A stretch of DNA of 64,000 nt from Escherichia coli (GTDB lineage: Bacteria; Pseudomonadota; Gammaproteobacteria; Enterobacterales; Enterobacteriaceae): NCBI RefSeq assembly GCF_003334305.1, contig NZ_QOWS01000020.1, one strand, 5' to 3'. Made by a program: the position numbers and the translations under genes. This document shows, in pieces, positions 3,078-31,228 of the stretch; the first letter of the stretch is position 1; each line of letters begins with the position of its first letter. The notes under the pieces were generated by a model. That model searched no databases. It was not told the origin of the DNA and was given only the letters and a program-made list of their open reading frames with translations.

Positions 3078-4532
3078 ATGTATATCGGGATAGATCTTGG
3101 CACCTCGGGCGTAAAAGTTATTTTGCTCAACGAGCAGGGTGAGGTGGTTGCTTCGCAAACGGAAAAGCTGACCGTTTCGCGCCCGCATCCACTCTGGTCG
3201 GAACAAGACCCGGAACAGTGGTGGCAGGCAACTGATCGCGCAATGAAAGCTCTGGGCGATCAGCATTCTCTGCAGGACGTTAAAGCATTGGGTATTGCCG
3301 GCCAGATGCATGGAGCAACCTTACTGGATGCTCAACAACGGGTATTGCGCCCTGCCATTTTGTGGAACGACGGGCGCTGTGCGCAAGAGTGCACTTTGCT
3401 GGAAGCGAGAGTTCCGCAATCACGAGTGATTACCGGCAACCTGATGATGCCCGGATTTACTGCGCCTAAATTGCTATGGGTTCAGCGGCATGAGCCGGAG
3501 ATATTCCGTCAAATCGACAAAGTATTATTACCGAAAGATTACTTGCGTCTGCGTATGACGGGGGAGTTTGCCAGCGATATGTCTGACGCAGCTGGCACCA
3601 TGTGGCTGGATGTCGCAAAGCGTGACTGGAGTGACGTCATGCTGCAGGCTTGCGACTTATCTCGTGACCAGATGCCCGCATTATATGAAGGCAGCGAAAT
3701 TACTGGTGCTTTGTTACCTGAAGTTGCGAAAGCGTGGGGTATGGCGACGGTGCCAGTTGTCGCAGGCGGTGGCGACAATGCAGCTGGTGCAGTTGGTGTG
3801 GGAATGGTTGATGCTAATCAGGCAATGTTATCGCTGGGGACGTCGGGGGTCTATTTTGCTGTCAGCGAAGGGTTCTTAAGCAAGCCAGAAAGCGCTGTAC
3901 ACAGCTTTTGCCATGCGCTACCGCAGCGTTGGCATTTAATGTCTGTAATGCTGAGTGCAGCATCGTGTCTGGATTGGGTCGCGAAATTAACCGGCCTGTG
4001 CAATGTCCCAGCTTTAATCGCTGCAGCTCAACAGGCTGATGAAAGTGCCGAGCCAGTTTGGTTTCTGCCTTATCTTTCCGGCGAGCGTACACCACACAAT
4101 AATCCCCAGGCGAAGGGGGTTTTCTTTGGTTTGACTCATCAACATGGCCCCAATGAACTGGCGCGAGCAGTGCTGGAAGGCGTGGGTTATGCGCTGGCAG
4201 ATGGCATGGATGTCGTGCATGCCTGCGGCATTAAACCGCAAAGTGTTACGTTGATTGGTGGCGGGGCGCGTAGTGAGTACTGGCGTCAGATGCTGGCGGA
4301 TATCAGCGGTCAGCAGCTCGATTACCGTACGGGGGGGGATGTGGGGCCAGCACTGGGCGCAGCAAGGCTGGCGCAGATTGCGGCGAATCCAGAGAAATCG
4401 CTCATTGAGTTGTTGCCGCAGCTACCGTTAGAACAGTCGCATCTACCAGATGCGCAGCGTTATGCCGCTTATCAGCCACGACGTGAAACGTTCCGTCGCC
4501 TCTATCAGCAACTTCTGCCATTAATGGCGTAA
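3078..4532 (+). CDS. xylB: xylulokinase (484 aa)
   Basis: MYIGIDLGTSGVKVILL... FGGY-family sugar kinase immediately downstream of xylA. Confidence 0.95.
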   Translation: MYIGIDLGTSGVKVILLNEQGEVVASQTEKLTVSRPHPLWSEQDPEQWWQATDRAMKALGDQHSLQDVKALGIAGQMHGATLLDAQQRVLRPAILWNDGRCAQECTLLEARVPQSRVITGNLMMPGFTAPKLLWVQRHEPEIFRQIDKVLLPKDYLRLRMTGEFASDMSDAAGTMWLDVAKRDWSDVMLQACDLSRDQMPALYEGSEITGALLPEVAKAWGMATVPVVAGGGDNAAGAVGVGMVDANQAMLSLGTSGVYFAVSEGFLSKPESAVHSFCHALPQRWHLMSVMLSAASCLDWVAKLTGLCNVPALIAAAQQADESAEPVWFLPYLSGERTPHNNPQAKGVFFGLTHQHGPNELARAVLEGVGYALADGMDVVHACGIKPQSVTLIGGGARSEYWRQMLADISGQQLDYRTGGDVGPALGAARLAQIAANPEKSLIELLPQLPLEQSHLPDAQRYAAYQPRRETFRRLYQQLLPLMA

Positions 4533-6736: not shown

Positions 6737-7036
6737 ATGATGATGAACGCTTTCTTTCCGGCAATGGCGCTTATGGTGCTAGTGGGTTGTTCTACACCGT
6801 CACCCGTGCAGAAAGCACAACGGGTAAAGGTTGATCCTCTGCGTTCGTTGAATATGGAAGCGTTATGCAAGGATCAGGCGGCAAAACGTTATAACACCGG
6901 CGAGCAAAAAATCGACGTCACCGCCTTCGAACAGTTCCAGGGAAGCTATGAAATGCGCGGTTATACCTTCCGTAAAGAGCAGTTTGTCTGTTCTTTTGAC
7001 GCGGATGGCCATTTTTTGCATCTTTCCATGCGTTAA
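6737..7036 (+). CDS. ysaB: lipoprotein YsaB (99 aa)
   Basis: Signal peptide with lipobox LVGC; position upstream of glyQ. Confidence 0.8.
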   Translation: MMMNAFFPAMALMVLVGCSTPSPVQKAQRVKVDPLRSLNMEALCKDQAAKRYNTGEQKIDVTAFEQFQGSYEMRGYTFRKEQFVCSFDADGHFLHLSMR

Positions 7037-10415: not shown

Positions 10416-10683
10416 ACTCGTTGGAAATCAACACAGGGGGCTGGGAATGCCGCAGAAATATAGATTACTTTCTTTAATAGTGATTTGTTTCACGCTTTTA
10501 TTTTTCACCTGGATGATAAGAGATTCACTGTGTGAATTGCATATTAAACAGGGGAGTTATGAGCTGGCGGCATTTTTAGCCTGCAATTTAAAAGAGTTAG
10601 AGTCTTCGGCGGGAAGTTATTCCCGCCTTTCTTACGGCGTTGCGCATTCTCATTGCACCCAAATTTATTTTTCACAAAAATAA
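10387..10683 (+). CDS. mokA: mokA-like reading frame (in-frame N-terminal extension of hok)
   Basis: ORF MPEHHKVSLLLVGNQHRGLG-MPQKYR... begins 20 codons upstream of and in frame with hok, as in chromosomal mok/hok pairs. Confidence 0.5.
   Translation: MPEHHKVSLLLVGNQHRGLGMPQKYRLLSLIVICFTLLFFTWMIRDSLCELHIKQGSYELAAFLACNLKELESSAGSYSRLSYGVAHSHCTQIYFSQK
10447..10683 (+). CDS. hokA: Hok-family type I toxin (HokA-like); frame runs 78 codons here against ~50 for canonical Hok
   Basis: MPQKYRLLSLIVICFTLLFFTWMIRDSLCELHIKQGSYELAAFLACNLKE... is a Hok family sequence; the codon after ...LKE is TTA rather than a stop and the frame continues to 10683. Confidence 0.7.
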   Translation: MPQKYRLLSLIVICFTLLFFTWMIRDSLCELHIKQGSYELAAFLACNLKELESSAGSYSRLSYGVAHSHCTQIYFSQK

Positions 10684-14653: not shown

Positions 14654-16987
14654 TTGGCCAACTCATCCTCACGATATTCCGTTCTGACTGCCGCCCATTG
14701 GGGGCCCATGCTGGTTGAAACCGACGGCGAAACCGTGTTTAGCTCGCATGGCGCGTTAGCCACAGGAATGGAAAACTCCTTGCAGAGCGCGGTTCGCGAC
14801 CAGGTTCACAGCAATACACGGGTACGATTTCCAATGGTGCGCAAAGGCTTTCTTGCGTCACCGGAAAATCCGCAAGGCATTCGTGGGCAGGATGAATTTG
14901 TTCGCGTGAGTTGGGATGAGGCGCTGGATCTTATTCACCAACAACATAAACGCATTCGTGAGGCTTATGGTCCGGCATCGATTTTTGCTGGTTCCTACGG
15001 CTGGCGTTCAAACGGCGTGCTGCATAAGGCCTCGACATTATTACAACGCTATATGGCGCTGGCAGGCGGTTATACCGGGCATCTGGGGGATTATTCGACC
15101 GGCGCGGCACAGGCGATCATGCCGTATGTCGTGGGTGGTAGCGAAGTTTATCAACAGCAAACCAGTTGGCCGCTGGTGCTGGAACATAGCGATGTCGTGG
15201 TGTTGTGGAGTGCTAACCCACTCAATACGCTGAAAATTGCGTGGAATGCATCTGATGAGCAGGGGCTTTCTTACTTTTCCGCACTGCGTGACAGCGGGAA
15301 AAAGCTGATCTGTATTGATCCAATGCGATCGGAAACCGTCGATTTCTTTGGCGATAAAATGGAGTGGGTGGCACCGCACATGGGCACCGATGTTGCGCTG
15401 ATGCTGGGGATCGCCCATACGCTGGTGGAAAATGGTTGGCACGACGAAGCGTTTCTGACGCGTTGCACCACAGGTTATGCCGTCTTCGCCTCTTATTTGC
15501 TGGGCGAGAGTGACGGAATAGCGAAAAACGCCGAATGGGCGGCAGAGATTTGTGGGGTTAACGCAGCGAAAATCCGCGAGCTGGCGGCTCTTTTCCACCA
15601 AAACACGACCATGCTGATGGCTGGCTGGGGAATGCAGCGCCAACAGTTTGGTGAGCAAAAACACTGGATGATCGTCACGCTGGCGGCAATGTTGGGGCAA
15701 ATCGGCACACCCGGCGGCGGTTTTGGTCTTTCTTATCATTTTGCCAATGGTGGTAACCCCACGCGGCGTTCTGCGGTGCTCTCTTCCATGCAGGGCAGCT
15801 TGCCGGGTGGCTGCGATGCGGTGGATAAAATCCCTGTTGCCCGCATTGTTGAAGCACTGGAAAACCCTGGTGGCGCATATCAACACAACGGTATGAACCG
15901 ACATTTCCCGGATATTCGTTTTATCTGGTGGGCGGGCGGTGCCAACTTTACTCATCATCAGGATACCAATCGTCTGATCCGTGCCTGGCAAAAACCGGAG
16001 CTGGTGGTGATCTCTGAATGCTTCTGGACGGCGGCGGCGAAACACGCGGATATCGTTCTGCCTGCGACTACCTCTTTTGAGCGTAATGATCTCACCATGA
16101 CCGGTGATTACAGTAATCAGCATCTGGTGCCGATGAAGCAAGTGGTGCCGCCACGCTATGAAGCGCGTAATGATTTTGATGTTTTTGCCGAGTTGAGTGA
16201 ACGTTGGGAGAAGGGCGGCTATGCGCGGTTTACGGAAGGAAAAAGTCAGCTGCAATGGCTGGAAACGTTTTATAACGTTGCCCGGCAGCGCGGGGCAAGC
16301 CAGCAGGTTGAATTGCCGCCATTTGCTGAGTTCTGGCAAGCCAACCAGTTAATTGAGATGCCGGAAAACCCGGACAGCGAGCGGTTTATTCGCTTCGCTG
16401 ATTTTTGCCGCGATCCGCTGGCGCATCCGTTAAAAACCGCCAGCGGCAAGATTGAAATCTTCTCACAGCGTATTGCCGATTACGGTTACCCGGATTGCCC
16501 TGGGCATCCAATGTGGCTGGAGCCGGACGAATGGCAGGGCAATGCCGAACCAGAACAGTTGCAGGTACTTTCTGCCCATCCGGCGCACCGCCTGCACAGC
16601 CAGCTGAATTACAGTTCTCTGCGCGAATTGTACGCGGTAGCAAACCGTGAGCCTGTCACCATTCATCCTGACGATGCTCAGGCGCGCGGCATAACCGAAG
16701 GGGATATGGTGCGGGTGTGGAACTCCCGTGGGCAGATCCTTGCCGGAGCGGTCATTAGCGAGGGAATTAAACCTGGCGTGATTTGCATTCACGAAGGGGC
16801 ATGGCCGGATCTGGATTTAACCGCTGACGGTATTTGTAAAAACGGCGCAGTGAACGTGCTGACCAAAGATCTCCCCAGCTCGCGGCTGGGGAATGGCTGT
16901 GCGGGTAATACGGCGCTGGCATGGCTGGAAAAATACAACGGTCCGGAACTGACACTTACAGCGTTTGAACCACCGGCCAGCTCATAA
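14654..16987 (+). CDS. bisC: biotin sulfoxide reductase, molybdopterin oxidoreductase (777 aa)
   Basis: [25 protein letters not shown]...; the track ORF begins with a TTG codon at 14654. Confidence 0.93.
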
Positions 16988-17396
16988 TCCAGGTGGGTAG
17001 TTGGGTTTCATCCTGCCATGCGCAATCGACAATGTGAAAACCCTGCGCACGGTAAAAATCTATCGCCGGTTGATTTTTTTGATAAACCTCCAGCATCAGA
17101 TGGGGATAGCGCTGCTGCACATACTGCATCAGCGCCTTACCAATACCGCGTCTGACGGCCTTCGGTGCGACAAACATTGCTGCCAGAAATCGGCCTTCCA
17201 TAATGCTGACAAAACCGAGAAGCTTACCGTCCTCTTCCCAGACCCAGTTTTGCGCGTTGGCAAGATAGGCATCCCGCACCAGCGGAATGCAGTCACGCCA
17301 GTAATTCGCTTTTATAAAGGGATGCCCCCAGGTTGTACTTTCCAGCCACAGTTCGAGGATCGCGGGGAGTTCTGAACGTTGCGCTTCCCGAATCAT
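16956..17396 (-). CDS. yiaC: GNAT-family N-acetyltransferase YiaC (146 aa)
   Basis: [17 protein letters not shown]... acetyltransferase fold; 3-prime end overlaps the bisC 3-prime end by 32 bp (convergent). Confidence 0.88.
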
Positions 17397-17956
17397 GGTT
17401 TATTTCCCGGATAGCAACAGCAGCCAACCACATGATCATTCACCAGCCCACATGCCTGCATAAAGGAGTAACAGATTGTGGTGCCGACAAACTTAAAACC
17501 ACGCTTTTTCAGGGCTTTAGATAGAGCGTCGGAGGCGGACGTAGATGTGGGAATTTCGCTCAACGTTGTGGCTTGTGTCACCTGTGGCTGATGATTTACA
17601 AACGACCAGACAAAGTCGGCAAACGGTTCGCCGTTCTGTTCCATTTGCAGGTACGCCCGCGCATTACCAATAATTGCCTGAATTTTCCCTCGATGGCGGA
17701 TAATCCCGGCGTCCTGTACCAGTCTTTCGACATCCTCTTCCTGCATTGCTGCGACCTTCACCGGATCGAACTGATGAAAGCAGGCGCGATAGTTTTCGCG
17801 TTTTTTGAGGACGGTGATCCACGATAACCCAGCCTGCTGCCCTTCAAGGCAGATCATTTCGAACAGTTTTTTACTGTCAGTTTCAGGCACGCCCCATTCA
17901 TTATCATGGTAGGCAATATAAAGCGGGTCCTGACTCACCCAGCCGCAACGTTCCAT
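17393..17956 (-). CDS. tag: DNA-3-methyladenine glycosylase I (187 aa)
   Basis: Track ORF trimmed to MERCGWVSQDPLYIAYHDNEWGVPE...; stop overlaps the yiaC start (4-bp overlap). Confidence 0.95.
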   Translation of the reverse strand: MERCGWVSQDPLYIAYHDNEWGVPETDSKKLFEMICLEGQQAGLSWITVLKKRENYRACFHQFDPVKVAAMQEEDVERLVQDAGIIRHRGKIQAIIGNARAYLQMEQNGEPFADFVWSFVNHQPQVTQATTLSEIPTSTSASDALSKALKKRGFKFVGTTICYSFMQACGLVNDHVVGCCCYPGNKP

Positions 17957-18113
17957 ACTTTCCCTCGCTATGTACCCGATCGTAAAAATTTCAGCCGCTT
18001 TTCTTGACGCATCGGTGAAAAAGTCAATATTTAATACAGGGCTACTATGCCCGATATCCTTCATACAATGACAATAATATTGCCGAATTCGGCTCTTCCC
18101 TGGAGTCGTGTTA

Positions 18114-18812
18114 ATGATCATAAAAAAAAGCGGTGGTCGCTGGCAGCTAAGCCTGCTGGCGAGCGTGGTAATCAGTGCCTTTTTTCTCAACACAGCTTAC
18201 GCCTGGCAACAAGAATATATCGTTGATACGCAACCCGGACATTCCACAGAGCGTTACACCTGGGATAGTGATCATCAACCTGATTACAACGATATTTTGT
18301 CGCAACGTATTCAAAGTAGCCAAAGGGCGCTGGGACTGGAAGTCAATCTGGCGGAAGAAACTCCTGTGGATGTGACCAGCAGTATGAGTATGGGCTGGAA
18401 TTTTCCTTTATATGAACAGGTTACAACCGGCCCGGTCGCGGCATTACATTACGATGGCACAACCACCTCGATGTATAACGAGTTTGGCGACAGTACTACC
18501 ACGCTGACCGATCCGTTATGGCATGCCAGCGTGAGTAGCTTAGGCTGGCGTGTTGACTCCCGGCTTGGCGATCTCCGACCCTGGGCGCAAATCAGCTATA
18601 ACCAGCAATTTGGCGAGAATATCTGGAAGGCGCAATCAGGCCTGAGCCGGATGACGGCGACAAACCAGAACGGCAACTGGCTGGATGTCACCGTAGGCGC
18701 TGATATGTTGCTCAATCAAAATATTGCCGCCTATGCCGCGCTAACTCAGGCAGAAAATACCACTAATAATAGCGACTATCTGTATACGATGGGGGTTAGT
18801 GCCAGATTTTAA
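18114..18812 (+). CDS. yhjY: uncharacterised protein YhjY (232 aa)
   Basis: MIIKKSGGRWQLSLLASVVISAFFLNTAYA signal peptide; called from synteny and length. Confidence 0.8.
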   Translation: MIIKKSGGRWQLSLLASVVISAFFLNTAYAWQQEYIVDTQPGHSTERYTWDSDHQPDYNDILSQRIQSSQRALGLEVNLAEETPVDVTSSMSMGWNFPLYEQVTTGPVAALHYDGTTTSMYNEFGDSTTTLTDPLWHASVSSLGWRVDSRLGDLRPWAQISYNQQFGENIWKAQSGLSRMTATNQNGNWLDVTVGADMLLNQNIAAYAALTQAENTTNNSDYLYTMGVSARF

Positions 18813-19040: not shown

Positions 19041-20249
19041 ATGACACCTTCAAATTATCAGCGTACCCGCTGGCTGACACTCATCGGTACAATCATTACC
19101 CAGTTTGCGCTGGGGTCGGTTTATACCTGGAGCCTGTTTAATGGCGCGCTTTCCGCCAAGCTGGATGCGCCGGTAAGCCAGGTCGCTTTCTCTTTCGGCT
19201 TGTTAAGTCTGGGGCTGGCAATTTCGTCTTCTGTTGCGGGCAAATTGCAGGAACGTTTTGGCGTTAAACGCGTCACCATGGCTTCCGGCATTTTGCTGGG
19301 ATTAGGCTTCTTCCTGACCGCGCATTCCAACAACCTGATGATGCTGTGGTTAAGCGCCGGTGTGCTGGTCGGTCTGGCGGATGGCGCGGGTTACCTGCTG
19401 ACGCTCTCTAACTGCGTGAAGTGGTTCCCGGAGCGTAAAGGTCTGATCTCCGCGTTCGCTATCGGTTCTTATGGTCTGGGTAGCCTGGGTTTCAAATTTA
19501 TCGACACGCAGCTGCTCGAAACGGTGGGTTTGGAAAAAACATTTGTGATTTGGGGAGCGATTGCGCTGGTGATGATTGTTTTCGGCGCAACGTTAATGAA
19601 AGACGCACCAAAACAGGAAGTGAAAACCAGCAATGGTGTGGTGGAGAAAGATTACACGCTGGCAGAGTCGATGCGTAAACCGCAGTACTGGATGTTAGCG
19701 GTAATGTTCCTGACTGCCTGCATGAGCGGCCTGTACGTGATTGGGGTAGCGAAAGATATCGCCCAAAGTCTGGCACACCTTGATGTGGTTTCCGCAGCCA
19801 ATGCAGTCACTGTTATTTCCATCGCTAACCTTTCAGGTCGTCTGGTGCTGGGCATTCTGTCTGACAAAATTGCCCGTATCCGTGTTATCACCATTGGTCA
19901 GGTGATTTCGCTGGTGGGTATGGCGGCCCTGCTGTTTGCACCATTAAATGCAGTGACGTTCTTTGCAGCGATTGCCTGCGTGGCATTTAACTTTGGCGGC
20001 ACTATTACCGTCTTTCCATCACTGGTCAGTGAGTTCTTCGGCCTCAATAACCTGGCGAAAAACTACGGTGTGATTTACCTCGGTTTCGGTATCGGTAGCA
20101 TTTTTGGTTCGATTATCGCCTCACTGTTTGGCGGTTTCTATGTGACCTTCTACGTGATTTTCGCCCTGCTGATTCTGTCATTGGCGCTTTCTACGACGAT
20201 TCGTCAGCCAGAGCAGAAAATGTTGCGTGAGGCGCATGGCTCCCTTTAA
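19041..20249 (+). CDS. yhjX: MFS transporter YhjX (402 aa)
   Basis: MTPSNYQRTRWLTLIGTIITQFALGSVYTWSLFNG...; 12-TM oxalate/formate antiporter-like MFS protein. Confidence 0.9.
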   Translation: MTPSNYQRTRWLTLIGTIITQFALGSVYTWSLFNGALSAKLDAPVSQVAFSFGLLSLGLAISSSVAGKLQERFGVKRVTMASGILLGLGFFLTAHSNNLMMLWLSAGVLVGLADGAGYLLTLSNCVKWFPERKGLISAFAIGSYGLGSLGFKFIDTQLLETVGLEKTFVIWGAIALVMIVFGATLMKDAPKQEVKTSNGVVEKDYTLAESMRKPQYWMLAVMFLTACMSGLYVIGVAKDIAQSLAHLDVVSAANAVTVISIANLSGRLVLGILSDKIARIRVITIGQVISLVGMAALLFAPLNAVTFFAAIACVAFNFGGTITVFPSLVSEFFGLNNLAKNYGVIYLGFGIGSIFGSIIASLFGGFYVTFYVIFALLILSLALSTTIRQPEQKMLREAHGSL

Positions 20250-20323
20250 TGCTCAGCCGCGAGCTACTGGGCTTCAGCTTCCGTGTGCATCAAACGCATC
20301 AACGAAATGTATAAACAATGACT

Positions 20324-20349
20324 CGTAAAATTTGGGCCAGTTAACTGGC
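20324..20349 (+). terminator. rho-independent terminator of yhjX
   Basis: GGGCCAGTTAACTGGCCC hairpin followed by TTTTT. Confidence 0.75.
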
Positions 20350-20572
20350 CCTTTTTACTGCTTTTTGTAACGCTAAAGTCTCTTTTCAAACTTGCATTTT
20401 TGTAAATTTGTGCTTCATGCACACTCTTTCCCCACACTTTTTCGCTTTGCTGTGGTCTACTTATTCGCGCGTGTAGATTTTACTTATCTGACTACCTCCG
20501 CACTTTTCCCCTGCCGGGCCTGAAAAGCCGCTAAGCAGGGTGTTATCACCTGTTTGTCCAGGGTTTGTTTGC

Positions 20573-22264
20573 ATGAGATACATCAAATCGATTACACAGC
20601 AGAAGCTGAGCTTTTTGCTTGCAATCTATATTGGCCTTTTTATGAATGGCGCGGTTTTTTATCGCCGCTTCGGCAGCTATGCGCACGATTTTACCGTCTG
20701 GAAAGGCGTTTCTGCCGTTGTTGAACTGGCCGCCACCGTACTGGTGACCTTCTTTTTACTACGTCTTCTATCGCTGTTTGGCCGCCGCAGCTGGCGTATT
20801 CTGGCGTCGCTGGTGGTGCTCTTTTCCGCAGGTGCCAGCTATTACATGACCTTCCTTAATGTGGTCATTGGTTATGGCATCATCGCTTCCGTCATGACCA
20901 CCGATATCGACCTGTCAAAAGAAGTTGTTGGTCTGAACTTTATTCTCTGGTTAATCGCCGTTAGTGCATTGCCTCTTATCCTTATCTGGAATAACCGCTG
21001 TCGCTACACCTTGCTCCGACAACTGCGAACCCCAGGGCAGCGTATTCGCAGCCTGGCGGTCGTCGTACTGGCGGGTATTATGGTTTGGGCACCGATTCGT
21101 TTGCTGGATATCCAGCAGAAGAAAGTGGAGAGGGCGACCGGCGTTGATTTGCCGAGTTATGGCGGTGTCGTAGCGAACTCTTATCTGCCATCAAACTGGC
21201 TTTCTGCGTTGGGGCTGTATGCCTGGGCGCGGGTCGATGAATCTTCCGATAATAATTCATTGCTTAATCCGGCGAAGAAATTCACTTATCAGGCACCGCA
21301 AAACGTTGATGACACTTATGTCGTGTTTATCATCGGTGAAACCACGCGTTGGGACCATATGGGCATTTTCGGCTATGAGCGTAATACCACGCCGAAACTG
21401 GCCCAGGAGAAAAATCTGGCGGCGTTCCGTGGTTACTCCTGTGATACCGCAACCAAACTCTCACTGCGTTGCATGTTTGTACGTCAGGGGGGCGCGGAAG
21501 ATAATCCGCAGCGCACATTAAAAGAACAGAACATTTTCGCGGTTCTGAAGCAGTTAGGATTCAGTTCTGACCTCTACGCTATGCAGAGCGAAATGTGGTT
21601 CTACAGCAACACGATGGCGGACAACATTGCTTATCGTGAGCAGATTGGTGCGGAGCCACGTAATCGTGGCAAGCCGGTAGATGATATGTTGCTGGTAGAC
21701 GAAATGCAGCAATCGCTAGGGCGCAACCCGGATGGTAAGCATCTGATCATTCTGCATACCAAAGGTTCGCATTTTAACTACACCCAGCGTTATCCGCGTA
21801 GCTTCGCGCAGTGGAAGCCGGAATGTATTGGTGTTGATAGCGGCTGTACCAAAGCGCAGATGATCAACTCCTATGACAACTCGGTGACCTATGTGGATCA
21901 CTTTATCTCCAGCGTGATTGATCAGGTTCGCGATAAGAAAGCGATTGTGTTCTACGCAGCTGACCACGGTGAGTCAATTAATGAACGCGAGCACCTGCAC
22001 GGCACGCCGCGTGAACTGGCACCGCCGGAGCAGTTCCGCGTACCGATGATGGTCTGGATGTCAGATAAATATCTGGAAAATCCGGCCAATGCTCAGGCAT
22101 TTGCGCAGCTGAAAAAAGAAGCCGACATGAAAGTGCCACGCCGTCATGTAGAGCTGTACGACACCATCATGGGTTGTCTTGGCTATACTTCACCGGATGG
22201 TGGAATTAACGAAAACAACAACTGGTGTCACATCCCGCAGACAAAAGTGGCAGCGGCTAACTAA
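20573..22264 (+). CDS. eptB: Kdo2-lipid A phosphoethanolamine transferase EptB (563 aa)
   Basis: Track ORF trimmed to [21 protein letters not shown]...; N-terminal TM domain plus sulfatase-like domain. Confidence 0.92.
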
Positions 22265-22355
22265 GCGGCCTGCTGACTTTCTCGCCGATCAAAAGGCATT
22301 TTGCTATTAAGGGATTGACGAGGGCGTATCTGCGCAGTAAGATGCGCCCCGCATT

Positions 22356-22432
<77 letters not shown>

Positions 22433-22438
22433 AATTCG

Positions 22439-22468
22439 AAAAGCCTGCTCAACGAGCAGGCTTTTTTG
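22439..22468 (+). terminator. rho-independent terminator of proK
   Basis: AAGCCTGCTCAACGAGCAGGCTT hairpin followed by TTTTT. Confidence 0.85.
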
Positions 22469-22519
22469 CATTTGTAGCTCATGAGGATGAGAACCTCCGG
22501 GGGCGGGGAGGTTCGACTC

Positions 22520-22615
22520 GACGTAGGCCTGATAAGACGCGTCAGCGTCGCATCAGGCAACGGCACCGCACTTATTGTCGGATGCGGCGTGAACGCCTTA
22601 TTCGACCTACACGCC
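22520..22615. repeat. REP / BIME-type palindromic units
   Basis: GCCTGATAAGACGCG...CGCATCAGGC and CGGATGCGGCGTGAACGCCTTAT units typical of E. coli REP elements. Confidence 0.7.
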
Positions 22616-23176
22616 ACACATTTCCCTGCCAAATTTGCGCCCCATATCTCACTATCCATTAACGGATTTGTGACAGAAACCATTGTCTTTTTTTATATTT
22701 GCTTAAATCTTTTTTTTCGTAACTTATGGCTGGCGCTGGCATTTTCCGCTGTGCGTTTTAGCGTTCATGGTATTAATCGCTCAGATATCCACCTTTTCCT
22801 CAGATTTTTTTCACTAAATGCATAAAACTTAATCACCAAATGTTGCTAAATATTAAGCTGATTGTTCTGGTCATGTTGGAGTAGCACAAATTTCTCTGCT
22901 GCAAATAGCTGTTTGAAGTTTTTTTAATCTTTGTTTGTGGATTCTCACCGTTGGTGTAAATCCCGGTTGGCTGTATTGACGTTTTCACATTCTGTTGACA
23001 GATTGTAGGTCACGAGGGGCATTTTATGGAGGATCCGCACTGTTACACTGATGTTAATTAGTACGGCATCCCCACCTCATAACGTTGACCCGACCGGGCA
23101 AAAAACAAAAAAGGTCAGGCAGCGACAACCCACTGCAAAGGGTTAAAACAACAAACATCACAATTGGAGCAGAATA

Positions 23177-24784
23177 ATGCGTATTTCCTTGAAAAAGTCA
23201 GGGATGCTGAAGCTTGGTCTCAGCCTGGTGGCTATGACCGTCGCAGCAAGTGTTCAGGCTAAAACTCTGGTTTATTGCTCAGAAGGATCTCCGGAAGGGT
23301 TTAACCCGCAGCTGTTTACCTCCGGTACCACCTATGACGCCTCTTCCGTACCGCTTTATAACCGCCTGGTTGAATTTAAAATCGGCACCACCGAAGTGAT
23401 TCCGGGCCTCGCTGAAAAGTGGGAAGTCAGCGAAGACGGTAAAACCTATACCTTCCATCTGCGTAAAGGTGTGAAGTGGCACGACAATAAAGAATTCAAA
23501 CCGACGCGTGAACTGAACGCCGATGACGTGGTGTTCTCGTTCGATCGTCAGAAAAACGCGCAAAACCCGTACCATAAAGTTTCTGGCGGCAGCTACGAAT
23601 ACTTCGAAGGCATGGGCTTGCCGGAGCTGATCAGCGAAGTGAAAAAGGTGGACGACAACACAGTTCAGTTTGTGCTGACTCGCCCGGAAGCGCCGTTCCT
23701 CGCTGACCTGGCAATGGACTTCGCCTCTATTCTGTCAAAAGAATATGCTGATGCGATGATGAAAGCCGGTACACCGGAAAAACTGGACCTCAACCCAATC
23801 GGCACCGGTCCGTTCCAGTTACAGCAGTATCAAAAAGATTCCCGTATCCGCTACAAAGCGTTTGATGGCTACTGGGGCACCAAACCGCAGATCGATACGC
23901 TGGTCTTCTCTATTACCCCTGACGCTTCCGTGCGTTACGCGAAATTGCAGAAGAATGAATGCCAGGTGATGCCGTACCCGAACCCGGCAGATATCGCTCG
24001 CATGAAGCAGGATAAATCCATCAATCTGATGGAAATGCCGGGGCTGAACGTCGGCTATCTTTCATATAACGTGCAGAAAAAACCACTCGATGACGTAAAA
24101 GTTCGCCAGGCTCTGACCTACGCGGTGAACAAAGACGCGATCATCAAAGCGGTTTATCAGGGCGCGGGTGTATCAGCGAAAAACCTGATCCCGCCAACCA
24201 TGTGGGGCTATAACGACGACGTTCAGGACTACACCTACGATCCTGAAAAAGCGAAAGCCTTGCTGAAAGAAGCGGGTCTGGAAAAAGGTTTCTCCATCGA
24301 CCTGTGGGCGATGCCGGTACAACGTCCGTATAACCCGAACGCTCGCCGCATGGCGGAGATGATTCAGGCAGACTGGGCGAAAGTCGGCGTGCAGGCCAAA
24401 ATTGTCACCTACGAATGGGGTGAGTACCTCAAGCGTGCGAAAGATGGCGAGCACCAGACGGTAATGATGGGCTGGACTGGCGATAACGGGGATCCGGATA
24501 ACTTCTTCGCCACCCTGTTCAGCTGCGCCGCCTCTGAACAAGGCTCCAACTACTCAAAATGGTGCTACAAACCGTTTGAAGATCTGATTCAACCGGCGCG
24601 TGCTACCGACGACCATAACAAACGCGTTGAACTGTACAAACAAGCACAGGTGGTGATGCACGATCAGGCTCCGGCACTGATCATCGCTCACTCCACCGTG
24701 TTTGAACCGGTACGTAAAGAAGTTAAAGGCTATGTGGTTGATCCATTAGGCAAACATCACTTCGAAAACGTCTCTATCGAATAA
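23177..24784 (+). CDS. dppA: dipeptide ABC transporter periplasmic binding protein (535 aa)
   Basis: MRISLKKSGMLKLGLSLVAMTVAASVQAKTLVYCSEGSPEGFNPQ... Confidence 0.96.
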   Translation: MRISLKKSGMLKLGLSLVAMTVAASVQAKTLVYCSEGSPEGFNPQLFTSGTTYDASSVPLYNRLVEFKIGTTEVIPGLAEKWEVSEDGKTYTFHLRKGVKWHDNKEFKPTRELNADDVVFSFDRQKNAQNPYHKVSGGSYEYFEGMGLPELISEVKKVDDNTVQFVLTRPEAPFLADLAMDFASILSKEYADAMMKAGTPEKLDLNPIGTGPFQLQQYQKDSRIRYKAFDGYWGTKPQIDTLVFSITPDASVRYAKLQKNECQVMPYPNPADIARMKQDKSINLMEMPGLNVGYLSYNVQKKPLDDVKVRQALTYAVNKDAIIKAVYQGAGVSAKNLIPPTMWGYNDDVQDYTYDPEKAKALLKEAGLEKGFSIDLWAMPVQRPYNPNARRMAEMIQADWAKVGVQAKIVTYEWGEYLKRAKDGEHQTVMMGWTGDNGDPDNFFATLFSCAASEQGSNYSKWCYKPFEDLIQPARATDDHNKRVELYKQAQVVMHDQAPALIIAHSTVFEPVRKEVKGYVVDPLGKHHFENVSIE

Positions 24785-24934
24785 TTAAAAGCCATACCCG
24801 GTGGCGCTGTGCCTCTGCGTGCAGCGCCATCCGGCAGCAATACTTCATTCTCTGTCCGACAAGGGCGGGAATTGATTTGTGAGCAATACAGACACGCAGT
24901 TCCAGGCTGCGGGTCATTATAGAGAATCCGGGTT

Positions 24935-25954
24935 ATGTTGCAGTTTATTCTCCGACGTTTGGGACTCGTCATCCCCACGTTTATCGGTATTACCCTTCTC
25001 ACATTTGCCTTTGTCCACATGATCCCGGGCGATCCGGTGATGATCATGGCGGGCGAACGTGGGATCTCCCCTGAGCGTCACGCGCAGCTGCTGGCTGAAC
25101 TCGGCTTAGATAAACCGATGTGGCAGCAGTATCTCCATTACATTTGGGGCGTAATGCACGGCGATCTAGGCATTTCAATGAAAAGCCGAATTCCAGTATG
25201 GGAAGAGTTCGTGCCGCGCTTTCAGGCCACGCTGGAACTTGGCGTCTGCGCGATGATTTTTGCTACGGCAGTCGGTATTCCGGTTGGTGTGCTGGCTGCG
25301 GTTAAACGCGGTTCCATTTTCGATCACACTGCAGTTGGCCTGGCGCTGACCGGCTACTCGATGCCGATCTTCTGGTGGGGCATGATGCTGATCATGCTGG
25401 TTTCGGTGCACTGGAACCTGACGCCCGTCTCCGGTCGCGTGAGCGATATGGTGTTCCTCGATGACTCCAATCCGTTAACCGGTTTTATGCTAATCGACAC
25501 CGCCATCTGGGGTGAAGACGGCAACTTTATCGATGCCGTTGCCCATATGATCTTACCGGCCATTGTGCTGGGTACTATTCCGCTGGCGGTCATTGTACGT
25601 ATGACACGCTCCTCGATGCTGGAAGTGCTGGGTGAAGATTACATCCGCACCGCGCGCGCCAAAGGGTTGACCCGCATGCGGGTGATTATCGTCCATGCGC
25701 TGCGTAACGCGATGCTGCCGGTAGTGACCGTTATCGGCCTGCAGGTGGGAACATTGCTGGCGGGGGCGATTCTGACCGAAACCATCTTCTCGTGGCCCGG
25801 TCTGGGGCGCTGGTTGATTGACGCGCTGCAACGCCGCGACTATCCGGTAGTGCAGGGCGGCGTATTGCTGGTGGCGACGATGATTATCCTCGTCAACCTG
25901 CTGGTCGATCTGCTGTACGGCGTGGTGAACCCGCGTATTCGTCATAAGAAGTAA
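24935..25954 (+). CDS. dppB: dipeptide ABC transporter permease (339 aa)
   Basis: MLQFILRRLGLVIPTFIGITLLTF...; ABC permease. Confidence 0.95.
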   Translation: MLQFILRRLGLVIPTFIGITLLTFAFVHMIPGDPVMIMAGERGISPERHAQLLAELGLDKPMWQQYLHYIWGVMHGDLGISMKSRIPVWEEFVPRFQATLELGVCAMIFATAVGIPVGVLAAVKRGSIFDHTAVGLALTGYSMPIFWWGMMLIMLVSVHWNLTPVSGRVSDMVFLDDSNPLTGFMLIDTAIWGEDGNFIDAVAHMILPAIVLGTIPLAVIVRMTRSSMLEVLGEDYIRTARAKGLTRMRVIIVHALRNAMLPVVTVIGLQVGTLLAGAILTETIFSWPGLGRWLIDALQRRDYPVVQGGVLLVATMIILVNLLVDLLYGVVNPRIRHKK

Positions 25955-25963
25955 GGGGACATC

Positions 25964-26866
25964 ATGTCACAGGTTACTGAAAATAAAGTGATTAGCGCAC
26001 CGGTGCCGATGACCCCGTTACAGGAGTTCTGGCACTATTTTAAACGCAACAAAGGCGCGGTCGTCGGGCTGGTTTACGTCGTCATCGTGCTGTTCATCGC
26101 GATCTTTGCCAACTGGATTGCACCCTATAACCCGGCGGAACAGTTCCGCGATGCACTGCTCGCCCCGCCAGCCTGGCAGGAAGGCGGCAGCATGGCGCAC
26201 TTGCTGGGCACCGATGACGTAGGCCGTGATGTGCTGTCGCGCCTGATGTACGGTGCGCGCCTGTCGCTGCTGGTTGGCTGTCTGGTAGTTGTGTTATCGC
26301 TGATTATGGGCGTTATTCTCGGCCTGATCGCCGGTTACTTTGGCGGCCTGGTCGATAACATCATTATGCGCGTGGTCGATATCATGCTGGCGCTGCCAAG
26401 TCTGCTGCTGGCGCTGGTGCTGGTGGCAATTTTCGGCCCGTCGATTGGTAACGCCGCGCTGGCACTGACCTTCGTTGCCTTGCCGCACTATGTGCGCTTA
26501 ACCCGCGCCGCCGTGCTGGTGGAAGTTAACCGCGATTACGTCACCGCGTCTCGCGTGGCGGGTGCCGGGGCGATGCGTCAGATGTTTATTAACATCTTCC
26601 CGAACTGCCTTGCGCCGCTGATTGTTCAGGCGTCGCTCGGTTTCTCTAACGCCATTCTCGATATGGCTGCTCTTGGTTTCCTCGGCATGGGGGCACAGCC
26701 GCCAACGCCGGAGTGGGGCACCATGCTCTCCGACGTGTTGCAGTTCGCGCAAAGCGCCTGGTGGGTCGTGACCTTCCCGGGTCTGGCGATCCTGCTGACG
26801 GTGCTGGCATTTAACCTGATGGGTGACGGTCTGCGTGACGCGCTCGATCCCAAACTGAAGCAGTAA
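25964..26866 (+). CDS. dppC: dipeptide ABC transporter permease (300 aa)
   Basis: ABC permease directly downstream of dppB. Confidence 0.95.
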
Positions 26867-30162: not shown

Positions 30163-30520
30163 AAAGTCCTGTCCAGAAAGAAGTCGGCCTCGCAAAAATG
30201 AATAAACCCAGATTCTCTTGCGCAACAGGTGGAGAAGTCGAATACGCAGTATGTAAAAAATGAGGCAACAGATTCACTGGGGAGGTCGCGAGGAGGCGCA
30301 ATTCTACAAAATTGCGCATTTCACTACCAGTCTGGAGTCAGCCCGGATATGAACTGCAACTATTGCAAATTAAGAAATTAAGCTGGAAGGCATCACGCAA
30401 TGAGGAAGATTGCCGGGTGCTGACAGTAAAAAGCAATCGTAAAATCAGCGGCAAGCCGGAAGGGTTCCGGTGAGGCGCAATGTTGCGGGGGCTTTATCCC
30501 TGGTGGCATTGGTTGCTGGA

Positions 30521-30584
30521 GAGAGAAAACCCCCGCACGTTGCAGGTATGCACCTGACAACATAACGGGGGCTAATCTTGAACC
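30521..30584 (-). ncRNA. rdlD: Rdl antisense RNA (antitoxin), copy 1
   Basis: Minus-strand sequence GGUUCAAGAUUAGCCCCCGUUAUGUUGUCAGGUGCAUACCUGCAACGUGCGGGGGUUUUCUCUC ends in a GC hairpin plus U-run and matches the Rdl family as I recall it; ends approximate. Confidence 0.6.
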
Positions 30585-30637
30585 TAAACAACTCAAGAAT
30601 AGCCGCGAAACGTTGTCATTACAACACAGGCGGCTAT

Positions 30638-30745
30638 ATGACGCTCGCAGAGCTGGGCATGGCCTTCTGGCATGATTTAGCGGCTCCGGTCATTGCTGGC
30701 ATTCTTGCCAGTATGATCGTGAACTGGCTGAACAAGCGGAAGTAA
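30638..30745 (+). CDS. ldrD: Ldr small toxic peptide (35 aa), copy 1
   Basis: ATG at 30638; MTLAELGMAFWHDLAAPVIAGILASMIVNWLNKRK, Ldr family; not in the supplied ORF track (below its length cutoff). Confidence 0.85.
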   Translation: MTLAELGMAFWHDLAAPVIAGILASMIVNWLNKRK

Positions 30746-30794
30746 CGTGTCATGCGGGCGTCAGGCTGCCGTAATGGCAATTTGCGCCCGGACC

Positions 30795-30827
30795 AGGCCG
30801 CAGGGGTGAAACTCTGCGGCCTTTTTC
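30795..30827 (+). terminator. rho-independent terminator of ldr copy 1
   Basis: AGGCCGCAGGGGTGAAACTCTGCGGCCT hairpin followed by TTTTT. Confidence 0.8.
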
Positions 30828-31003
30828 GTAAGAAAAATGCAACGGTTGCAAGCGGATAATATTCTGCGGAATGCGCAGCACAGAGTGAGTAAGTGATGGA
30901 TTTCGGAACAGAAAAACAGTCGTAGAATCAGCGGCAAGCCGGAAAGGTTCCGGTAAGGCGCAATGTTGCGGGGGCTTTATCCCTGGTGGCATTGGTTGCT
31001 GGA

Positions 31004-31067
31004 GAGAGAAAACCCCCGCACGTTGCAGGTATGCACCTGACAACATAACGGGGGCTAATCTTGAACC
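31004..31067 (-). ncRNA. Rdl antisense RNA, copy 2
   Basis: Identical to copy 1 over this segment. Confidence 0.6.
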
Positions 31068-31120
31068 TAAACAACTCAAGAATAGCCGCGAAACGTTGTC
31101 ATTACAACACAGGCGGCTAT

Positions 31121-31228
31121 ATGACGCTCGCAGAGCTGGGCATGGCCTTCTGGCATGATTTAGCGGCTCCGGTCATTGCTGGCATTCTTGCCAGTATGAT
31201 CGTGAACTGGCTGAACAAGCGGAAGTAA
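31121..31228 (+). CDS. Ldr small toxic peptide (35 aa), copy 2
   Basis: ATG at 31121; identical predicted peptide to copy 1. Confidence 0.85.
   Translation: MTLAELGMAFWHDLAAPVIAGILASMIVNWLNKRK

Follow-up and report, generated by a model that had tools for sequence, protein, structure and literature searches.

The convergent genes bisC and yiaC of Escherichia coli share the last 32 bp of their coding sequences. Our analysis indicates that the two genes are real and that their tail-to-tail overlap is most likely ordinary and ancient, is held by purifying selection on both proteins, carries no dedicated function and leaves transcription to terminate inside the partner gene. The overlap was studied in a 64,000-nt stretch of E. 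coli DNA (contig NZ_QOWS01000020.1 of assembly GCF_003334305.1), hereafter the window, and the features that bear on it are listed in Table 1. The bisC-yiaC overlap is a known feature, both annotated in RefSeq and named in the literature.

Table 1 Features at the bisC-yiaC junction, in window coordinates.
Feature	Position	Strand	Description
bisC CDS	14654..16987	+	ORF list and RefSeq; biotin sulfoxide reductase, 777 aa
yiaC CDS	16956..17396	-	ORF list and RefSeq; GNAT N-acetyltransferase, 146 aa
tag CDS	17393..17956	-	RefSeq; directly upstream of yiaC, same strand
Convergent coding overlap	16956..16987	both strands	32 bp; raw sequence and ORF list concordant
yiaC stop TAA	16956-16958	-	plus strand reads TTA; antisense of BisC Leu768 (CTT) and Thr769 (ACA)
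bisC stop TAA	16985-16987	+	antisense of YiaC Ile137 (positions 2-3) and Met138 (position 1)
YiaC M138-S139-W140	16977..16985	-	end of the last β-strand; opposite BisC A775-S776-S777
YiaC tail 141-146, PVVQTL	16959..16976	-	variable, low pLDDT; opposite the conserved BisC LTAF(D/E)PP
Candidate hairpin	16871..16893	-	9 bp, 6 G-C pairs, weak U tract; inside bisC
tag-yiaC untranslated 3′ extension	16704..16955	-	antisense to bisC; ends at the published Rho region (~16704 if collinear with MG1655)

An earlier reading of this DNA, made from the sequence only, had named and placed the two genes and described a convergent 32-bp overlap between them. RefSeq and the ORF list agree with the gene names and coordinates, and the raw sequence, the ORF list, RefSeq and the MG1655 annotation are all concordant on the overlap itself. 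The plus strand at 16949-16987 is CTGACACTTACAGCGTTTGAACCACCGGCCAGCTCATAA. The 3′ ends of the two coding sequences, on opposite strands, are held in common and both stop codons lie inside the shared segment, which comprises nine sense codons, the stop and two additional nucleotides of each gene; the statement that the last 10 codons overlap is therefore accurate if the stop is counted as one of them. Neither gene contains an earlier genuine stop that would remove the overlap, which therefore stands. An open run of 10 codons is nothing unusual for the antisense frame that is in use here, and were the real stops lost, the next in-frame stops would be encountered 63 codons (yiaC) and 56 codons (bisC) beyond. 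At its other end, yiaC overlaps tag by 4 bp through an ATGA start/stop overlap at 17393-17396, and tag and yiaC are presumed to form one transcription unit.

The same bisC and yiaC coordinates are given by RefSeq for strain E2865, which is 100% identical to the window over positions 16500-17500. More broadly, the match to E2865 extends only to ~22.5 kb of the window, and elsewhere the gene order follows that of K-12. The K-12 MG1655 annotation holds an identical 32-bp overlap, with yiaC at 3713652..3714092 (+) and bisC at 3714061..3716394 (-). In genome BE104, bisC has been deleted by engineering and an FRT scar remains; the right junction of this deletion retains the last 40 nt of bisC and ends 8 nt beyond the yiaC stop, leaving yiaC intact.

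The two reading frames are arranged such that the first codon positions of the two genes face each other, while position 2 of bisC is opposite position 3 of yiaC and position 3 of bisC is opposite position 2 of yiaC, i.e. phase (123:132). Of the E. coli convergent overlaps that exceed 4 bp, most often this phase is seen, at 46% observed compared to 39% expected if stop codons simply mutate (PMC2174442, Table 4). Each stop codon is read from codons of the other gene. The yiaC stop is provided by a Leu-Thr pair of BisC, whereby CTT-ACN yields TAA and CTC-ACN yields TGA, as found in Enterobacter ludwigii. Within the BisC sequence LTLT, the Leu that carries a CTY codon sets the length of YiaC at either 146 or 148 residues; for the 148-residue YiaC, the stop is supplied by the first Leu-Thr pair of LTLT, 6 nt later. 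Conversely, the synonymous change of yiaC Ile137 from ATT to ATC replaces TAA by TGA as the bisC stop, and bisC TGA stops that arise via this Ile ATC codon are present in Pseudescherichia, Enterobacter, Kosakonia and Metakosakonia.

A shared constraint on both C-termini, as had been proposed from the sequence, is evident from the synonymous sites of 12 taxa. Third positions of yiaC are invariant at 8 of 10 sites in the overlap versus 12 of 136 outside it (Fisher p = 1e-6), and those of bisC at 4 of 10 versus 7 of 183 (Fisher p = 0.001). The mean entropy of the yiaC third positions in these taxa is 0.16 bits in the overlap compared to 1.04-1.14 outside, and the corresponding values for bisC are 0.60 and 1.04-1.10. 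When all 958 32-nt windows of the 990-nt alignment are ranked, the overlap has the 13th lowest entropy. This invariance at synonymous sites reveals purifying selection on both frames within the overlap.

Both ORFs are real genes, as judged by the match of BisC to DMSO reductase and by the GNAT homologues and confident structural model of YiaC. The C-terminal 200 aa of BisC align to residue 778 of the 780 residues of the Rhodobacter DMSO reductase structure 1eu1 (E = 5e-60), and thus the BisC C-terminus is of native family length; BisC also aligns up to the very end of TMAO reductases. The conserved LTAF(D/E)PP segment of BisC is aligned with the C-terminal TVFDTP of the Rhodobacter enzyme, and the last three residues vary between ASS, ANS, ANP and ASP. 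YiaC has 2612 homologues at E <= 0.001, with Pfam assignments Acetyltransf_1/7/10, and its closest relative of solved structure is YjaB (2kcw), a YiaC paralogue of 147 residues. The AlphaFold2 model of YiaC has a mean pLDDT of 96.3, and its last β-strand spans residues 133-140. Each 10-residue block up to this point has a pLDDT of 96-98, compared to a mean of 65 for residues 141-146. Across 41 aligned family members, with identities down to 30%, M138 and W140 are conserved at 90% or more. The tail that follows W140 of the M-x-W motif is 2-16 residues long across the family, and residues 141-146 occur as PVVQTL, QADQTP, QAGQTP and other variants. Activity of YiaC has been published (PMC6199490, PMC9636275). 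Recent extension of either protein by loss of a stop was considered and rejected: BisC ends at most two residues from the end of the Rhodobacter DMSO reductase, and the length of the YiaC tail is within the family range. Neither BisC nor YiaC is abnormally long.

The junction is highly conserved. A 76-nt junction query was found in 5422 of 5426 complete E. coli genomes, at no less than 95% identity in every case and at 99% or higher in 3205, and the segment 16500-17500 of the window was found in 5423 of the 5426. The overlap is 32 bp in Escherichia species, E. albertii, E. whittamii, Salmonella, Citrobacter amalonaticus and C. rodentium, as well as in Pseudescherichia and Enterobacter ludwigii, and it is 38 bp in Lelliottia, Kosakonia, Metakosakonia and one metagenome contig. 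Overall, an overlap of 32 or 38 bp is kept in 16 of 16 orthologous loci from ~10 genera, a count that covers loci where yiaC and bisC adjoin. A contig scan based on YiaC returned Escherichia only, and the other genera were reached via protein matches and contig look-ups; YiaC from these genera is just 52-65% identical to E. coli YiaC, yet the overlap is kept. Thus, to the question of whether the overlap is conserved in relatives or one stop has shifted, which the sequence-only reading had posed, the answer is that the overlap is conserved with a single 6-nt shift of the yiaC stop. No adjacent yiaC/bisC pair lacking the overlap, i.e. no intermediate, was found among the loci fetched. Within the K-12 region that is collinear with most of the window, 2 of ~8 convergent CDS pairs overlap, namely yiaC/bisC (32 bp) and ysaE/hokA (24 bp), and the remaining pairs are separated by gaps of 29-181 bp. 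Strain E2865 also has convergent overlaps at frwD/yijO and oxyR/sthA, which are located outside the region covered by the window.

Two distant loci that encode YiaC homologues (41-45% identity) bear on the origin of this arrangement. Both share the gene neighbourhood of the E. coli locus, with glyQS and tag-yiaC, and tag and yiaC are either overlapping by 4 bp or separated by a short gap. bisC is absent from both, and yiaC is followed by a spacer of ~0.5 kb, after which the next gene encodes a ghrB-like dehydrogenase in one locus and a yiaD-like lipoprotein in the other. Because these loci lack bisC and have this spacer, the overlap most likely stems from the juxtaposition of bisC and yiaC, and, judging from these two outgroup loci, it most likely dates from when bisC came to lie beside yiaC in the ancestor of the sampled Enterobacteriaceae. 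We found no convincing intrinsic terminator after yiaC in the free space of the outgroup loci.

Published data indicate that the transcripts of the two genes overlap, as the sequence-only reading had expected: yiaC-bisC is named in the list of MG1655 convergent excludons, for which the criterion is detection in at least 50% of 58 transcriptomes (PMC12288877, Table 1). The accompanying claim that there is no room for a terminator between the two genes is literally true, but termination need not sit between the stops, as it may occur for example in a Rho region inside bisC. The further claim, that the missing space forces the two transcription units into conflict, is not supported in this form, given the Rho region reported within bisC (PMC7815308) and the transcript overlaps that occur elsewhere despite intergenic space (PMC4161252). 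This Rho-dependent, i.e. bicyclomycin-sensitive, termination region was reported at MG1655 3714344 (+) as 'antisense bisC', with a score of 7.3 and p = 5.5e-14; the reads upstream/downstream of it were 90/23 in untreated cells and 60/112 with bicyclomycin (PMC7815308, Suppl. file 2). Its position is coarse, being derived from 800-nt windows, and comes from one condition in K-12 only (PMC7815308). The site lies inside bisC, 252 nt downstream of the yiaC stop codon, and would correspond to ~16704 of the window provided that no indels distinguish this stretch from MG1655. Over the first five 50-nt windows past the yiaC stop (to +250), C/G ratios range from 1.17 to 1.89, after which the value falls to 0.93. 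Rho requires untranslated RNA in which C exceeds G, and the RNA upstream of the Rho zone is indeed untranslated, C-rich and G-poor, with a modest enrichment.

The curated Term-seq tables of the same study contain no 3′ end on either strand in MG1655 3713200-3714399, where the Rho region at 3714344 is the sole entry (PMC7815308); low expression might mask weak 3′ ends in these data. A second published dataset has no entry for the bisC or yiaC genes (PMC10349824). Beyond the bisC stop, the sequence offers no convincing terminator but a weak A/U-rich stem followed by a T7 run, with a fold that does not improve on shuffles (z = +0.88), and a search of 16000-18200 revealed no Rfam families, with a single chance-level match (E = 0.55). 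We infer that bisC transcripts must end inside yiaC or tag. Overlap of this kind is widespread: 276 of 370 convergent E. coli operons (~75%) overlap, by a mean of 286 nt and even where there is intergenic space (PMC4161252), and hence complementary 3′ ends are the norm and not peculiar to yiaC-bisC.

We propose that bisC, which encodes a molybdoenzyme, and yiaC, which encodes a GNAT protein, would each be read to the native C-terminus, with the final 32 nt serving both frames. Such sharing is tolerable for three reasons. The wobble position of each gene faces the second position of its partner. M138 and W140 of YiaC lie opposite the variable last three residues of BisC, and the variable tail of YiaC opposite the BisC LTAF(D/E)PP. 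Finally, each stop is built from codons that are permissible in the partner. The overlap would then have been held since the juxtaposition through purifying selection on BisC and YiaC. As to transcription, the tag-yiaC RNA would be untranslated past the yiaC stop, would continue antisense into bisC and would be stopped by Rho ~250 nt downstream. The resulting complementary 3′ ends would represent the normal state of E. coli convergent operons, and any transcriptional interference is probably small.

Other explanations assign the overlap a role or question its reality. It is unlikely that the pair is a functional excludon, in which the overlap is kept since convergent transcription sets bisC and tag-yiaC expression in mutual antagonism by polymerase collision or RNase III cleavage. 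The presence of yiaC-bisC in the MG1655 list would fit this idea, but the list is based on coverage and hence reports overlap, not regulation (PMC12288877). Likewise, the yiaC-sense transcript reaches about 250 nt into bisC (PMC7815308) and collision-based termination at convergent pairs has been shown in general (bioRxiv 10.1101/2022.10.23.513370), but transcript overlap is typical of convergent operons and this pair is not singled out among them (PMC4161252). The depth to which the arrangement is kept across genera could mean selection for the arrangement itself, which is inseparable here from protein constraint; the constraints on the two proteins account for the conservation of the 32 nt, and distant relatives retain tag-yiaC without bisC. 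Our literature search found no report of reciprocal bisC/yiaC regulation. If true, the excludon reading would add one further member to a known class. A stronger proposal, which we regard as very unlikely, is that the overlap together with the hairpin in bisC is a selected device for the antagonistic coupling of two stress-repair units, acting via programmed polymerase collision or dsRNA processing; the units in such a device would be bisC (biotin/methionine sulfoxide reduction) and tag-yiaC (alkylation repair and protein acylation). If it existed, this device would account for an arrangement that is frozen across the Enterobacteriaceae. The probability that the overlap is an artefact, with one stop missequenced or misannotated or one C-terminal extension left untranslated, is negligible. 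Thousands of independently sequenced genomes carry the junction in near-identical form, the same stops recur in different genera with both frames under purifying selection in the overlap, and BisC and YiaC end where their families end. The presence across E. coli genomes, the cross-genus stops and the dual-frame selection rule out a sequencing or annotation error.

The candidate hairpin, the sole terminator-like element near the yiaC stop, lies 63 nt past this stop and cannot serve bisC, because it is located about 95 nt before the bisC stop, inside the CDS. It is doubtful that the hairpin, embedded in the bisC CDS, terminates tag-yiaC transcripts intrinsically or positions polymerase collisions on them. 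Its 9-bp stem with six G-C pairs is followed by AUCUUUGGU (dG = -15.7 kcal/mol), but the U tract is weak, the terminator scan returned 4 sites versus 2.0 +/- 1.6 expected by chance, and the fold of the 121 nt around the hairpin is not unusual (z = -0.89). The hairpin is kept in most genera, with 89.7% of cells paired in an alignment of 13 distinct sequences, and is broken in Pseudescherichia, where the U tract is lost as well. One pair covaries, changing from C-G to G-C in 4 sequences through synonymous third positions of bisC (Leu CTC to TTG with Gly GGG to GGC). The hairpin outscores 498 and 497 of 500 shuffles in covariation score and percentage paired, respectively; however, the tool itself notes that such outcomes arise in 5-25% of unconstrained trees, the single covarying pair probably reflects one or two events, and the stem consists mostly of conserved codons. 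Evidence from RNA ends also speaks against a working terminator, as curated Term-seq lists zero 3′ ends in 3713800-3714399 and thus no mapped ends on either strand at the hairpin, and readthrough near the hairpin is sensitive to Rho inhibition (PMC7815308). An embedded intrinsic terminator is nevertheless compatible with compact packing of two ordinary genes and does not exclude it.

Comparison with known systems places yiaC-bisC among the short prokaryotic convergent overlaps (Lillo & Krakauer 2007, PMC2174442), with which it shares 3′ ends held in common on opposite strands, a length below 50 bp and the phase (123:132). It fits the origin described for this class, by loss or shift of a stop codon and extension to the next stop in the antisense frame. 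Apart from being longer than the very common 4-bp overlaps it shows no essential difference from the class, and at 32 or 38 bp in at least 10 genera it is unusually well documented as conserved. The pair resembles convergent excludons in its complementary 3′ ends and is itself in the list (ExcludonFinder, PMC12288877; Conway et al. 2014, PMC4161252). Well-studied excludons have a demonstrated regulatory effect, whereas for yiaC-bisC coverage overlap alone is reported. Moreover, transcript overlap is obligatory for yiaC-bisC since the CDSs themselves overlap, and is not a product of leaky termination. A further likeness is to Rho-ended antisense or 3′-extended transcripts (Adams et al. 2021, PMC7815308), as the yiaC-sense region is antisense to bisC and comes after an untranslated stretch in which C exceeds G; compared with those systems, the yiaC locus is known as a coarse region, without a mapped rut site or a precise 3′ end. 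Bidirectional intrinsic terminators, known from the SEnd-seq work cited in bioRxiv 10.1101/2022.10.23.513370, are similar in that the gene ends of a convergent pair lie close to a palindromic, G+C-rich hairpin. The bisC-yiaC arrangement differs in having zero intergenic space between the stops and a hairpin that lies in the bisC CDS, has a weak U tract on just one strand and coincides with no mapped 3′ end. The yiaC-bisC overlap thus belongs to a common class, and its comparative detail is tidy and unsurprising.

For biology at large the finding has small weight: bisC-yiaC is a clean, well-conserved textbook case of two proteins that share 32 nt, in which constrained residues of one face free residues of the other and either stop codon is drawn from codons of the partner gene. 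Within E. coli it has consequences for work on either gene. Synonymous recoding in the last 10 codons of bisC or yiaC is not neutral, deleting or recoding one gene can harm its neighbour, and knock-out phenotypes need to be checked for effects on the neighbouring gene.

The 4-bp overlap (ATGA) of tag with yiaC in E. coli is not shared by Salmonella, Citrobacter, Enterobacter and other genera, in which the called tag is 192-193 amino acids long and overlaps yiaC by 20-23 bp; thus, the co-directional tag-yiaC junction has moved, whereas the convergent one between bisC and yiaC has not. The far side of bisC is also less stable than its yiaC side, since yiaD is absent beside bisC in the Kosakonia and Metakosakonia loci and a LacI-family regulator gene directly adjoins bisC where yiaD is missing. 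In E. coli BE104, an FRT scar that carries the Datsenko-Wanner P1 and P2 priming sites stands in place of bisC from about codon 51 on. The final 40 nt of bisC are kept, so that yiaC is intact, and the BE104 locus is therefore an engineered knock-out with a right junction that spares yiaC.

Within bisC lies a G+C-rich hairpin of 9 bp, which is retained across genera and could be an embedded terminator or an mRNA structure. One of its pairs is preserved because two codons of bisC have changed together and synonymously, a Leu codon from CTC to TTG and a Gly codon from GGG to GGC. In Pseudescherichia the hairpin is disrupted. Elsewhere in the window region, the K-12 annotation has another convergent coding overlap, of 24 bp, between the small gene ysaE and hokA, a pair also present in the published excludon list.

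Despite 100% identity to E2865 around the bisC-yiaC overlap, the window strain differs from that strain. In the yhjX-eptB interval, the lpf fimbrial operon of E2865 is missing from the window. Past ~22.5 kb the window keeps to the gene order of K-12, whereas E2865 departs from it, with IS621 and an unrelated region there. We also observed a tandem duplication in the window, with two copies of at least 300 nt that are 98% identical and spaced by 483 nt. In K-12 the corresponding unit contains ldrD/rdlD, a type I toxin-antitoxin locus that is single there, and the window strain appears to have two copies at this place.

Coordinates of the features discussed
Feature	Window	Other sequence	Orientation	Source
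ysaE/hokA overlap	~10550-10650 (approximate)	K-12 3720400-3720600	convergent	K-12 annotation
Identity to E2865	16500-17500			
bisC hairpin	16871-16893		- strand	
tag/yiaC overlap	17393-17396	L008-L014 (other genera) 4001-4023	co-directional	
lpf operon, absent from window	20237-20334	L018 (E2865) 20237-26027		
Duplicated unit (holds ldrD/rdlD in K-12)	30429-31211		tandem	
bisC FRT scar		L017 (BE104, NZ_CP040643.1) 3417-3500		
yiaD absent beside bisC		L013, L014 (Kosakonia, Metakosakonia) 6740-6980		
Distant tag-yiaC		L020 4001-4456; L021 4001-4444		

Two distant tag-yiaC loci (L020 and L021) share the same neighbourhood, with glyQS and a yiaD-like or ghrB-like gene, and have no bisC; ~0.5 kb of non-coding DNA follows yiaC. 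No clear intrinsic terminator was seen past yiaC at either locus, so the use of Rho by tag-yiaC may be general.
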